Below, in pieces: positions 35,986 to 55,453 of a stretch of 64,000 nucleotides of DNA (positions are counted from its first letter, which is position 1; every line of letters starts with the position of its first letter). Where the stretch lies: NCBI GenBank assembly GCA_041598875.1, contig JBFHXP010000001.1, forward strand, positions 26,179 through 90,178. The letters are read 5' to 3'. Source of the DNA: Desulfobulbales bacterium (GTDB lineage Bacteria > Desulfobacterota > Desulfobulbia > Desulfobulbales > BM004). A program made the position numbers and the translations under genes. The notes beneath the pieces are model-generated. The model had not been told where the DNA came from, searched no databases, and worked only from the letters and a program-made list of their open reading frames with translations.

Positions 35986-36022
35986 GTAGTGTCCGTCCGG
36001 AAAGTCTGTTTTTTCCGGATGG
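35986..36022 (+). repeat. Intergenic repeat family 2, hairpin module
   Basis: GTAGTGTCCGTCCGGAAAGTCTGTTTTTTCCGGATG is 35/36 identical to the reverse complement of 55418..55453. Confidence 0.8.
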
Positions 36023-36063
36023 CTACACGTGGTTGTTTTCAAACCGGAAACAGAAAATTTTGA

Positions 36064-36090
36064 AAAAGTGGCGTTTCCGGATGAAAACTA
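36064..36090 (+). repeat. Intergenic repeat family 2, 27-mer module upstream of nadB
   Basis: AAAAGTGGCGTTTCCGGATGAAAACTA is identical to 52107..52133. It ends 33 nt before the nadB ATG. Confidence 0.9.
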
Positions 36091-36123
36091 CTTAGTGCAC
36101 GCACTCATAGTTCCATCCAGACC

Positions 36124-37743
36124 ATGGCCATAACAACAGATTTTCTCATCATCGGCAGCGGTATATCCGGCCTCTCCTTTGCCTTGAAGGCCGCCGCCCT
36201 GGGCACGGTGACCATTATCACCAAAAAGGCCAAGGTGGATACCGCCACCAATCTGGCCCAGGGCGGGATCGCGGCAGTGCTTTCTCCGGATGATTCCTAT
36301 GCACTGCACATCAGGGACACCCTGATTTCCGGCGCCGGCCTGTGCCGGGAAGAGGTGGTTCGGCTGGTGGTGGAAAACGGCCCGGTAAGAATACGGGAAC
36401 TGCTTGCCCTTGGCGTCTCCTTCTGTGCCGATGAAAAAGAGCCCGGTCACCTCGATCTGGGCAAGGAGGGAGGGCATTCCGCACGGCGCATCGCCCATGC
36501 CCGCGACCTCACCGGCCGGGAAATAGAACGGGCACTTCTCGAGCGGGTGGCAGCCAACCCGGCAATCACCGTGCTCGAAAACCACCTGGCCGTGGATCTG
36601 CTCATCGGGTCCAAGGCCGGGGCAACGGCAGGCGGACACTTTTCCGACCGCTGCCTGGGCGCCTATGTGCTGCACAGAGATGACAACTCGGTGCACCGCT
36701 ACCTGGCCCGGGTCACGGTTCTGTGTACCGGCGGGTGCGGCAAGGTCTATCTCTATACCACCAACCCGGATATCGCCACCGGTGACGGGGTTGCCATGGC
36801 CTACCGGGCCGGCGCCAGGATCGCCAACCTGGAATTCATGCAGTTCCACCCCACCTGCCTTTACCACCCCAAGGCCAAGAATTTTCTGATATCAGAGGCG
36901 GTACGCGGCGAAGGCGGACGGCTTATTGATGAACGGGGCCGTCCCTTTATGGAAAAATATGATCCCCGGGGCGATCTGGCCACCCGGGACATGGTGGCCC
37001 GGGCCATTGACTCGGAGATGAAATCCAGCGGTGATGACTGCGTCTTTCTCGACATCTCCCACAAACCCGCCGATTTCATCAGAAAACGCTTTCCCAATAT
37101 TTACCAGACCTGCCTCGGATACGGTATCGACATGACCCGCGAACCGATACCGGTGGTGCCGGCGGCCCATTACATGTGCGGCGGCGTGGTCACCGACACC
37201 ATGGGCCGGAGTTCCATTGAAAACCTTTACGCCCTGGGCGAAACCGCCTGCACCGGCCTGCACGGCGGCAACCGTCTGGCCAGCAACTCGCTGCTCGAGG
37301 CGGTGGTCTTTGCCCACCAGGCCTTTGTCCAGTGTTCAGAGGACCACAAGGCGATCATGGCCCGGGATTTTCCCGAGGTGCCCACCTGGAGCGCCGGCCG
37401 CGCCGAAACCATCAAGGAGGGGGTGCTTGTATCCCACAACTGGGACCAGATCCGCCGCCTGATGTGGAACTATGTCGGCATTGTCCGCCGGGAAAAAAGG
37501 CTTCTTCTGGTCCAGAAACGCCTGGCCCCGATCCTTGAGGAGGTGGCCCAGCATTTCCGGGATTATTTTCTGACCCCGGACCTGGTGGAGCTGCGCAACC
37601 TGGCGTTGATCGCCGAACTCATTATCCAGAGCGCCCTGGCCCGCAAGGAATCCCGCGGCCTGCACTTTTTGGTCGACTATCCGTCCACCGATGACCTCCG
37701 CTGGCAGCGGGATACGGTTCTCAGCCGGGGCATGCGTCCGTAA
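36124..37743 (+). CDS. nadB: L-aspartate oxidase
   Basis: FAD-binding N-terminus DFLIIGSGISGLS, plus RDLTGREIE and HYMCGGV motifs. Typical length (539 aa). Confidence 0.95.
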   Translation: MAITTDFLIIGSGISGLSFALKAAALGTVTIITKKAKVDTATNLAQGGIAAVLSPDDSYALHIRDTLISGAGLCREEVVRLVVENGPVRIRELLALGVSFCADEKEPGHLDLGKEGGHSARRIAHARDLTGREIERALLERVAANPAITVLENHLAVDLLIGSKAGATAGGHFSDRCLGAYVLHRDDNSVHRYLARVTVLCTGGCGKVYLYTTNPDIATGDGVAMAYRAGARIANLEFMQFHPTCLYHPKAKNFLISEAVRGEGGRLIDERGRPFMEKYDPRGDLATRDMVARAIDSEMKSSGDDCVFLDISHKPADFIRKRFPNIYQTCLGYGIDMTREPIPVVPAAHYMCGGVVTDTMGRSSIENLYALGETACTGLHGGNRLASNSLLEAVVFAHQAFVQCSEDHKAIMARDFPEVPTWSAGRAETIKEGVLVSHNWDQIRRLMWNYVGIVRREKRLLLVQKRLAPILEEVAQHFRDYFLTPDLVELRNLALIAELIIQSALARKESRGLHFLVDYPSTDDLRWQRDTVLSRGMRP

Positions 37744-37839
37744 ACAAGAAGAAAACAGGACTGAGCCTTGAACGCTTGAACAATAGAACTCTGGAACCGT
37801 AACCGGAGTCAAGACCGTTTCCGGACAAAACGAAATACT

Positions 37840-53474: not shown

Positions 53475-53516
53475 AGAATGTCGAACAAGGAATTTCGAAT
53501 CATCATTCGATATTCA
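53475..53516. repeat. Palindromic intergenic repeat family 1, copy B
   Basis: GAGAATGTCGAACAAGGAATTTCGAATCATCATTCGATATTC shares an exact 23-mer (TCGAACAAGGAATTTCGAATCAT) with copy C. Confidence 0.75.
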
Positions 53517-53652
53517 CGTAGTTGAGATCAGAGTCTCGCAGACTCGCTTTCCTCTGAGGATAAAATTTTGAGCAGATACAGAGACCGGACAAGATACGCG
53601 TAGACTTCGAAAGAGAATTATTCAATATGGCCTTAACTCGGACGAGTGGACC

Positions 53653-54660
53653 TTACCGGACAAGGGCATACCGCTTCTGAATCAGCGTCAGCCGGCTTTC
53701 ACTTTGCATGAGACGCTCACGGCTGATCATCCCCTGCTCACAGGCATCATCCATCGCTGCAATCGACCGCGCAACCTTCTGGTGATCCTCACAGATGAGA
53801 AGAATGTCCGCGCCGGCGACAAAGGCGTCGCAGGCGGCCTTTTCCACCAGCCCCTCATTTTCAATGGCCCCCATCTCCAGATCATCGGTGATCACCAGCC
53901 CGTTGTACTGCAAATCCCCTCTCAGCAGATCGGTAAGTATCCGGGAAGAGAGGGTGGCTGGAAATGCCGGATCCAGATGGCTGTAAATGGTATGGGAGGT
54001 CATGATCGCGGCAACACCCGCCCGGATTGCCGCCCGGAAGGGCACCAGATCAACGGCAAGAATCCCGTCCAGGGGCCGGTTCACCGTGGGCAGGTGATGG
54101 TGGGGATCGGTCTTTGCCGCGCCCAGTCCGGGAAAATGCTTGGCGCAGGCGGCAATGCCTTGCTCCTGGAAAGTGGTTATGATCAGCGATCCCAGGCGGC
54201 CGGCCTTTTCCGGATCTTCCCCCAGGGACCGCCGCTCCATGAAATAGCTCTCCCCCCCTGCGCAGACATCAAGAACCGGGGCAAGATTCATATTGACCCC
54301 GATATCGAGCAGTTCCCGGCCGCACACCCGGGCATACTCGGCCAGGGATTTTTCAGGGTCAGCAGACCCGGCCAGCTTCCGGGCATCGCTGAACTGGGTA
54401 AATGGCGGCGGCAGACGGGTGACCGTCCCCCCCTCCTGATCTATGGAAATGAGCGGCGGATCGAGATTTCTTTTGCGACAGGCGCTACGCAGCCCGGCGG
54501 TCAGTTCGCGCAACTGCTCCCGGCTTCCGACATTCCTGGCAAAAAGAATGAACTGGTTGATTCCGTAATCGCCGATCAGATCACGGGTGGACGGGTCAAG
54601 CTCCGTACCCGGCAGACCGATCATGAAAAAACGACCAGGATTCACCCCGCGTCCGGTCAT
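53653..54660 (-). CDS. nagZ: Beta-N-acetylhexosaminidase (GH3)
   Basis: [26 protein letters not shown] and ITDDLEMGA motifs. The start at 54660 overlaps the queC stop (ATGA). Confidence 0.85.
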
Positions 54661-55388
54661 GAATCCCCCCCCCCGGCGTCGTAAACCGGGCGGCAATAGG
54701 AAAGCGGGTCAACGAGTCCGGCATCGGCAAACCCCTTAAGCCGGAGCAGACAGGCATCGCACTCGCCGCAGGCAAAGAGAACCCCCTCAATTACTTGGGG
54801 ATCATAGCAGCTGTGGGTCTGGCTGTAATCCACGCCAAGGGAGACCCCTTTTTCAATGATTTCCCTTTTGCTGAGCTGCATCAGCGGGGCATGAATCGTG
54901 ATCTTCTTGCCCTGCTGCGTCCCGGAACGGGTGGCAAGTCCGGCGAGTTTTTCAAAGGTTTTCAAGAATTCCGGCCGGCAATCGGGGTATCCGCTGTAAT
55001 CCAGGGCATTGACGCCGATAAATATATCCCCGGCCCCGACCACCTCGGCCCAGGCCATGGCATATGACAGAAAAATGGTGTTGCGGCCAGGAACATAGGT
55101 GACGGGAATCCCTTTTTTCATCTCCGCAAAGTCCCGTCCCTTTGGGACTGCCATTGAGGTGGTCAGGGCCGAGCCGCCGATCCTGTCCAGATCGATCTTC
55201 AGGACCATATGGTCGCTGGCGCTGAAAATCGCGGCATTGGCCCGGGCCTTTTCCAGTTCCATGGACTGGCGCTGACCATACTCAAAACTCAGGCAATAGC
55301 AGGCATACCCCTGGGCCCGGGCAATGGCAAGCACCGTGGTGGAGTCCAGGCCGCCGCTTAAAAGAACAATCGCTTTCAGGGAATTCAT
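54657..55388 (-). CDS. queC: 7-cyano-7-deazaguanine synthase
   Basis: N-terminal PP-loop [10 protein letters not shown] and a C-terminal Cys cluster (HSCYD..CGECDAC). Confidence 0.95.
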
Positions 55389-55410
55389 CTCGTAGATTTT
55401 TTTTGATACT

Positions 55411-55453
55411 TAGTTTTCATCCGGAAAAAACAGACTTTCCGGAGGGACACTAC
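55411..55453 (-). repeat. Intergenic repeat family 2, contiguous copy upstream of queC
   Basis: The minus strand reads GTAGTGTCCCTCCGGAAAGTCTGTTTTTTCCGGATGAAAACTA. It combines the hairpin module with the ...TTTCCGGATGAAAACTA end of the 27-mer. It ends 22 nt before the queC ATG. Confidence 0.85.

Follow-up and report, generated by a model that had tools for sequence, protein, structure and literature searches.

Repeats upstream of nadB, pyrC and queC in a Desulfobulbales bacterium as probable miniaturised copies of a transposable element family

[quoted passage not shown] All of these features were shared by a repeat family with copies upstream of nadB, pyrC and queC in 64,000 nucleotides from a Desulfobulbales bacterium (GenBank assembly GCA_041598875.1, contig JBFHXP010000001.1, positions 26,179 to 90,178 of the forward strand); this whole stretch is called the window, and window coordinates are used throughout. 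The family differed from described bacterial MITEs in that no cognate insertion sequence or transposase was found and in that the same 16-bp ends were carried by several interiors. With a probability of about 0.88, the window repeats are copies, decayed or miniaturised, of a MITE family widely distributed among “delta” bacteria that reduce sulfate or metals. This family is a further case of a well-known kind, and the finding is in that sense an ordinary one.

The Correia elements of Neisseria (CREE/NEMIS) resemble the family in several respects: they are MITEs of 100-160 bp whose ends begin with TA followed by G, with a target that contains TA, deletion variants both short and long, an interior integration host factor (IHF) consensus (here the candidate site WATCAANNNNTTR, in 33 of 45 copies) and a frequent location just upstream of genes and inside transcripts. 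Correia elements duplicate TA only, and outward promoters and RNase III sites have been documented in them, whereas the family described here has a 6-bp duplication and no promoter consensus. The only named MITE of the present host group in the literature searched was Chunjie, from Geobacter uraniireducens Rf4 (Chen et al. 2008), which is described as A+T-rich, 178-235 bp long, with 21-bp terminal repeats and 9-bp direct repeats (PMC3184786, PMC10969869). According to those accounts, Chunjie is similar to our family in its related host group, its size variants and partial copies, its stable predicted hairpins and its insertion into an operon without destroying it; it is set apart by its description, rather than by its sequence, from a family with 16-bp repeats and 6-bp duplications. 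The genome papers on G. metallireducens, G. bemidjiensis and P. carbinolicus do not list the repeat sequence in their supplementary repeat catalogues.

Ends, target site and distribution of the full-length element

All three window copies contain the same 17-mer, TTTCCGGATGAAAACTA. A scan of one genome per species for exact matches gave at least 113 stretches, and at more than 100 loci in genomes of Thermodesulfobacteriota the 17-mer was the right end of a discrete element. The earlier note on this DNA was right in seeing a portable repeat family. About 100 of the listed stretches came from Desulfuromonadales, Geobacteraceae, Geopsychrobacteraceae, Desulfonatronospira, Desulfonatronovibrio, Desulfohalobiaceae, Syntrophobacterales, Desulfobaccales, Desulfobacterales and metagenome-assembled genomes (MAGs) labelled “delta proteobacterium”. 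Several copies per genome were common (4-6 exact matches each in several single genomes, among the matches listed). The remaining listed stretches lay mostly inside ORFs of unrelated taxa, some of them encoding ..FPDEN(Y).., and the 17-mer was seen in protein genes of Verrucomicrobiota, Marinobacter, Vibrio and Clostridia (loci L020, L056 and L112; also L059, L062 and L092); these are coding coincidences and not elements. A metagenome scan with a lineage-specific 21-mer gave 2 matches only.

At most loci the 17-mer formed the 3' edge of a conserved block, beyond which the flanks diverged. BLAST searches with the sequence upstream of it placed a sharp end of conservation about 180 nt upstream, and the block opened with TAGTKKCCATCCGGAAAC, the reverse complement of its own end. 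The full-length element is about 176 nt long and non-coding (full-length copies 173-188 nt, derivatives 38-112 nt), its only ORFs being accidents of 4-11 codons that start in the terminal repeat. The 16-bp terminal inverted repeats (5'-GTKKCCATCCGGAAAC ... GTTTCCGGATGAAAAC-3'; about 14 of 16 positions complementary) were nearly invariant in 45 copies. An nhmmer profile built from 41 full-length copies found 51 full-length copies, and gave 173 matches in the fetched loci and the window together.

The sequences flanking 50 non-redundant full-length copies revealed the target-site duplication: the 6-mers on the two sides were identical in 20 and differed at one position in 14, with respect to 0 of 50 with one mismatch or fewer in a shifted control. 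The left-hand 6-mers had the palindromic consensus TARYTA, the first two positions of which were not biased by the search. The duplication measured 6 bp, and a few copies fit 7 bp. Some duplications did not end in TA (TAACCA, TAGCTG, TAAGCA, TAACTG and TACTTT, together with AAGCTA); the true termini are therefore G...C and the duplication 6 bp long, and with the termini fixed in this way the last TA of TTTCCGGATGAAAACTA is target DNA. A TA-only duplication of the IS630/Tc1 type is ruled out by duplications such as TAACCA and TAGCTG, and the end of a TnpB/IS200-605 element, of an IS110-type element or of a group II intron by the terminal inverted repeats together with the 6-bp duplications.

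The same ends and perfect 6-bp duplications were also carried by three or more further element families whose interiors are unrelated; these, and the short derivatives of the main family, were:

Loci L004 and L036: elements of about 145-156 nt with another interior
Loci L008, L050 and L065: elements of about 210-220 nt with another interior
Loci L022, L024 and L097: elements of 92-219 nt with another interior
Loci L068 and L100 (51 nt), L009 (73 nt) and L071 (112 nt): short derivatives of the main family, with perfect duplications

The presence of the same ends on unrelated interiors and on short derivatives is what would be expected of a trans-acting transposase that recognises the ends alone. 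Together, the ends of 16 bp and the 6-bp duplication TARYTA mark out a MITE superfamily that spans at least four orders of Thermodesulfobacteriota. The family showed what characterises MITEs: it is short and non-coding, it has terminal inverted repeats and a duplication of fixed length, and it occurs in many dispersed copies; at the pyrB-pyrC and queC sites of two distant relatives the extra DNA is absent.

At some loci the block occurred in the opposite orientation or in tandem. Two head-to-tail pairs of full-length copies (L037 1335-1696 and L013 6171-6532) were split only by a shared 6-bp duplication (…AAAAC TAGTTA GTTGCC…), which suggests repeated insertion into the TA-rich junction made by an earlier copy. 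Longer variants of the main family, of 226-279 nt (L066 2701-2979, L070 6416-6668, L089 498-750 and L102 2646-2871), contained extra internal segments, some of them like pieces of other element families, and look like mosaic MITEs.

Copies upstream of nadB, pyrC and queC

The 17-mer TTTCCGGATGAAAACTA had three exact occurrences in the window; up to three mismatches there were five matches, with respect to 0.14 expected by chance, and none of 100 shuffles reached five. The two matches with three mismatches were inverted partner arms (35987-36003 on the minus strand and 55436-55452 on the plus strand), which makes the 43-mer upstream of queC an imperfect palindrome, TAGTGTCCCTCCGGAAA ... TTTCCGGATGAAAACTA. 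The repeat coordinates of the earlier note agreed with the sequence: the 27-mer AAAAGTGGCGTTTCCGGATGAAAACTA was the same at 36064-36090 and 52107-52133, the 43-mer lay on the minus strand of 55411-55453, its first 36 nt were repeated at 35986-36021 with 97% identity, and the 17-mer was the common end of both at all three copies. The distances to the start codons (33 nt for nadB, 26 nt for pyrC and 22 nt for queC) were likewise correct, and NCBIfam agreed on the identity of the three genes and also identified pyrB.

The copy upstream of nadB comprised the following features:

35989 to 36088, plus strand: nadB copy, a 100-nt internally deleted MITE (nhmmer profile and fold)
35983 to 35988, plus strand: left target-site duplication TACGTA (5 of 6 positions match TACTTA)
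36089 to 36094, plus strand: right target-site duplication TACTTA (its TA is the last 2 nt of the 17-mer)

Its left module was made up of the left repeat GTGTCCGTCCGGAAAG and a right-repeat-like arm with a loop between them, and was followed by an internal repeat-like site, GTTTTCAAACCGGAAAC, and by the right terminal 30 nt or so, ending in GTTTCCGGATGAAAAC; the central 85 nt or so of the full-length family were absent. The nhmmer profile described the same arrangement, with 35987-36061 matching profile positions 1-64 (E 7e-8) and 36059-36090 matching positions 149-180 (E 5e-6). The predicted fold contained two family hairpins (-44.9 kcal/mol, z = -5.9), and the same design was found in the 73-nt element of L009 and the 112-nt element of L071, both with perfect duplications. 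The two halves of this copy had been reported as 62 nt apart; this figure measures from the start of one TTTCCGGATG direct repeat to the start of the other, and the real gap is 52 nt.

The copy upstream of queC was the shortest in the window:

55413 to 55450, minus strand: queC copy, a 38-nt mini-element (left repeat GTGTCCCTCCGGAAAG, 6-nt loop, right repeat TTTTCCGGATGAAAAC)
55451 to 55456, minus strand: upstream target-site duplication GCAGTA, read on the minus strand (4 of 6 positions match TAAGTA)
55407 to 55412, minus strand: downstream target-site duplication TAAGTA, read on the minus strand
55500 to 55528, minus strand: promoter-like block that is not part of the element (TTGCCC, 17 nt, TAAAGT), kept in relatives

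This design, predicted to form a hairpin of -15.7 kcal/mol (z = -3.2), is also that of the elements of 51 nt in L068 and L100, which have perfect duplications. The 43-mer can be derived from a copy of the nadB type by deletion between the two 10-bp TTTCCGGATG repeats, the reverse of the nested insertion that had been suggested. The copies are related by rearrangement between these direct repeats, and the nadB copy is better described as the normal two-hairpin architecture of the family with an internal deletion than as a nested insertion. Two contigs of relatives (L114 and L115) have the same gene order as the window (lepB-pyrB-pyrC-GH3-queC), and a block cTTGCCCtgt-(N)-ccgcTAAA(A/G)Tg, like a -35/-10 pair with 17-nt spacing, was nearly invariant in them and in the window, with its flanks (CAATTAT..ATC) also conserved in the three distantly related genomes. 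The block may serve as the queC promoter; as it lies upstream of the queC copy, the copy is most likely in the predicted 5' untranslated region (UTR). The queC leader was about 48 nt longer in the window than in the two relatives, and the insertion would have added these 48 nt or so, including the hairpin, to the 5' UTR.

A different reading of the queC repeat is a palindrome of the repetitive extragenic palindromic (REP) or bacterial interspersed mosaic element (BIME) type, mobilised by a RAYT (Y1) transposase or kept as an mRNA-stabilising hairpin, and not a cut-and-paste or copy-paste transposon with terminal inverted repeats. The 43-mer taken alone is indeed a 17/17-nt imperfect intergenic palindrome, as REPs are, and both left ends in the window read GTAG, like REP heads. 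REPs, however, lack target-site duplications and do not represent both ends of some longer element, whereas the copies elsewhere were bounded by 6-bp direct duplications of arbitrary sequence and the palindrome corresponded to the two ends of an element of about 176 nt with a unique interior; the base before TAG belongs to the duplication and varied between loci, so that there is no conserved GTAG head. This makes the REP/BIME reading extremely improbable. The earlier note's term “REP-type element” comes close in that it denotes a mobile intergenic repeat, but does not hold in the strict sense of REP, given the terminal inverted repeats and the 6-bp duplications.

The third copy lay between pyrB and pyrC:

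52044 to 52131, plus strand: pyrC copy, the right half of an element (profile positions 91-178; nhmmer match to positions 91-180, E 2e-15)
52132 to 52137, plus strand: right target-site duplication TAGATA, which fits TARYTA

This copy begins at the present pyrB stop codon and lacks the left half as well as the left duplication. By PyrC, the closest named relatives were Desulfobacterales and Desulfobulbaceae-type MAGs (74% identity). The pyrB-pyrC spacer was 12 nt in L114 and 11 nt in L115, with respect to 113 nt in the window. In both relatives the pyrB stop lies within TGAGG, and GGTGAGGAAG is still present in the window downstream of the pyrC element; an ancestral-looking stop/Shine-Dalgarno TGAGG survives 3' of the element. 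The C-terminus of PyrB reads ..MGN-TLNP* in the window and ..MGNV* and ..MGNP* in the two relatives. In the window both features fall within 52017-52046 and 52138-52159. An insertion followed by loss of the left half of the element would therefore have rewritten the last codons of pyrB and uncoupled pyrB from pyrC. About 100 nt would have been added to a junction formerly of 11-12 nt, and PyrB would have gained a new tail of 4 residues. The copy is predicted to lie inside the pyrB-pyrC operon transcript.

Copies of this kind might also be MITE-derived and exapted, so that the retained ends act in cis as RNA hairpins of the nadB and queC leaders and of the pyrB-pyrC spacer, in processing or stability or in uncoupling pyrC translation from that of pyrB. 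Correia and ERIC elements are known to act in this way. The copies are located within predicted transcripts, the predicted hairpins of the nadB and queC copies are stable (the energies and z-scores given above), and the right terminal 27 nt are the same in the nadB and pyrC copies. This 27-nt identity is, however, equally explained by recent copies of one subfamily, and the same 27 nt end an element with an unrelated interior in a metagenome; the structure of the pyrC half copy is nothing out of the ordinary (z = -0.7), and there is no orientation bias elsewhere. Exaptation is, all in all, an improbable account, with perhaps one chance in ten.

Two further sequences in the window were related to the family:

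4531 to 4576, minus strand: internal remnant, decayed and lacking both termini, from the same subfamily (GGTTTTTTCCGG ... CGGAAACAGACAATTTTGAAAAA; 23 nt at 96%)
About 37803 to 37831, plus strand: what may be a decayed right end, ..AAGACCGTTTCCGGACAAAAC, located 8 nt before the ATG of the next gene at 37840 (weak; borderline E = 0.56)

The degenerate inverted copy that had been proposed at 35712-35745 did not reach significance with the profile (E = 11). Intergenic repeats of another, unrelated family were also observed, with units like GAATATCGAA and GGAATTTCGAATCAT, partly in inverted pairs (35512-35602, 53471-53506, 59844-59887 and 59997-60040). This other family is found in the same long spacer upstream of nadB and also downstream of pyrC, and presumably corresponds to the “family 1” of the earlier note.

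Promoter and leader readings of the window copies

The earlier note had considered the repeats as a portable promoter or as a leader or upstream ORF (uORF) cassette, in which a -35/-10 pair or a translated MKT leader would control the downstream housekeeping gene. Three observations speak for it: each of the three exact copies in the window points at the gene that follows and stops 22-33 nt short of its start, the stop codon of the queC mini-ORF overlaps the queC ATG, and TTGAAA-N18-AAAACT occurs within the nadB copy. The reading of the mini-ORFs was accurate (MKTT* for nadB, MKTRYGW* for pyrC and an 11-residue peptide for queC), as was the overlap of stop and start at queC (ATGA).

Orientation in other genomes gave a different picture. 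Among the 94 occurrences with a callable downstream gene, as called by a crude longest-ORF procedure, 42 were co-oriented with that gene and 52 opposed to it, the outcome that the earlier note had itself named as refuting its proposal. Tandem genes flanked 30 full-length elements (21 of these antisense, 9 sense), convergent genes 9 and divergent genes 9; promoter regions were not enriched. Many of the opposed cases adjoined the stop codon of the neighbouring gene, and in at least a quarter of the cases with a gene converging on the element the stop of that ORF was a TAG made of the TA of the duplication and the first G of the element; the TARYTA target often coincides with stop codons or replaces them. 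The location of these stops at the element fits a target that begins with TAR (a TAA or TAG stop).

Consensus scans of the three window copies turned up no promoter-like or terminator-like sites, and TTGAAA-N18-AAAACT did not qualify in the scan for sigma-70. A sigma-54 or sigma-70 promoter was discarded because of wrong spacing on inspection and the negative scan. Translation of the MKT mini-ORFs fared no better: no Shine-Dalgarno sequence precedes the ATG (..GCGTTTCCGGATG), which is predicted to be base-paired in the nadB and queC copies. The mini-ORF consists of the last 8 nt of the terminal repeat (ATGAAAAC), the TA of the duplication and unrelated flank. MKT is encoded by the repeat end and the T of the duplication, and the residues after it differ between copies because they are encoded by the duplication and the flank; the peptides agree in MKT only. 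The “ATG-AAA-ACT mini-ORF” is an accident of the repeat sequence and of a target that starts with TA.

Leader peptides, uORF attenuators and the preQ1 riboswitch are similar to the window copies in that a short ORF or a hairpin lies directly upstream of a biosynthetic gene; the copies differ in lacking a Shine-Dalgarno sequence, a peptide conserved beyond MKT, a terminator, an Rfam match and an orientation bias. At gathering thresholds no preQ1 riboswitch was matched by Rfam at queC or elsewhere in the window, and no Rfam match of any kind was obtained in the window, in 18 loci with full copies, or in one copy at permissive E-values; a known RNA family (preQ1, HEARO/omega-RNA-like RNAs and group II intron domains included) was rejected on this result. 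With the orientation counts, the lack of conservation of the peptide beyond MKT, the conserved promoter-like block upstream of the queC copy and the interruption by the pyrC copy of an operon junction formerly of 11-12 nt, the cassette is very unlikely. No evidence was obtained for a role of the copies as promoter, leader or terminator.

Strand-specific fold, mobilisation and significance

The fold of the full-length element was analysed in an alignment of 45 distinct full-length copies (A1). The consensus fold consisted of a 5' hairpin, formed by the left repeat and the adjacent right-repeat-like arm (the design of the queC mini-element), and of a long hairpin of about 135 nt, with the right repeat paired at its base to an internal repeat-like site, GTTTTCAnnnnGGAAAC. 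For the 48 consensus pairs, 95% of the cells were paired, with respect to 86.7% in shuffles (0 of 500 shuffles reached this value) and 37-51% in slid controls; changes on both sides of a pair were observed in 179 cells, with respect to 58 in shuffles. The fold was strand-specific: G.U and A.C counts were 242:75 on the strand ending in ..GAAAAC and 114:159 on its complement, and the forward strand was the more stable in all 45 copies (forward minus reverse -12.9 kcal/mol, with respect to -4.3 for shuffled sequences). An exact match to the IHF consensus, WATCAANNNNTTR, was located at the centre of 33 of the 45 copies, on the ..GAAAAC strand only, and is a candidate site. The window copies have lost most of the fold region.

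One explanation of these results takes the element of about 176 nt to be in the first place a structured RNA gene or single-stranded-DNA element whose fold, and not its ends alone, is selected, for example as an RNA that aids or regulates its own mobilisation. The pairing and the two-sided changes exceeded those of shuffles and slid controls, and the G.U bias and the stability of the forward strand point in the same direction. Terminal inverted repeats and a fixed duplication are, however, the signature of DNA transposition; no Rfam match and no internal promoter consensus were found, the element was antisense (21) more often than sense (9) between tandem genes, and copies such as those of the window have lost most of the fold. 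Other MITEs are also reported to fold into long hairpins, Chunjie being an example in the account of PMC3184786. A primary RNA or single-stranded-DNA nature is unlikely on this evidence, slightly less so than exaptation. A doubtful possibility, to which somewhat more weight may be given, is that the full-length element is selected for a strand-specific multi-helix fold with a central IHF-like site, an RNA or single-stranded-DNA form of one strand taking part in mobilisation, regulation or host service, in a transposon system across several orders of Thermodesulfobacteriota. The fold may stem from an RNA, from an intermediate of single-stranded DNA or, the element being very short, from pairing of its ends assisted by IHF.

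With respect to mobilisation of the family as a MITE, its anatomy suggests that a DDE-type transposase which binds the ends and makes cuts staggered by 6 bp presumably mobilises the element in trans. The location near gene boundaries may be due to the tolerance of intergenic spacers for insertion and to the target TARYTA, which is AT-rich and starts with TAR, as TAA and TAG stop codons do. ISDol1, an ISNCY-group element with 6-7-bp duplications from a Desulfococcus, may be a lead. Long-spaced pairs of repeats in the fetched loci enclosed ordinary genes only, no recurrent ORF was found next to the ends or anywhere in these loci, PLSDB plasmids gave no match, and the 14 matches of the 16-mer in IMG/VR were all chance or coding matches. 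At L103 (974-2177), a 300-aa ORF located 285 nt inside a repeat encodes a Druantia DruA domain (PF14236, E 3e-45) and no transposase; no matching second end was found at this locus, and the ORF is probably a coincidental neighbour of a partial element.

Several points weigh against the assignment of the window repeats to a MITE family. Neither the fetched loci (about 0.9 Mb) nor PLSDB plasmids nor IMG/VR viral contigs yielded an autonomous element, with a transposase gene bounded by the repeats. The relatives that serve as “empty sites” are distant (74% PyrC identity), and a precise empty site is thus not demonstrated. The orientation census depends on crude gene calls, and all clear window copies, together with the possible remnant at 37803-37831, face a start codon 8-33 nt away, a number of copies (n = 3-4) too small to be significant; local exaptation of the window copies is a minor possibility. 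Finally, strong covariation in a strand-specific fold is not obviously needed by a purely selfish DNA transposon.

For annotation, the assignment to a MITE family means that these repeats should be masked as MITE copies, and not recorded as small ORFs, promoters or riboswitch-like leaders. In this genome it provides concrete small-scale effects of MITEs, which would have opened the pyrB-pyrC junction by about 100 nt, given PyrB a tail and added a hairpin to the queC leader. The well-supported, strand-specific, covarying fold of the full-length family is unusual and merits follow-up. More broadly, the superfamily is common to many uncultured Desulfuromonadales, Desulfovibrionales-type haloalkaliphiles, Syntrophobacterales and Desulfobulbales-like bacteria, and gives a handle for finding the transposase.

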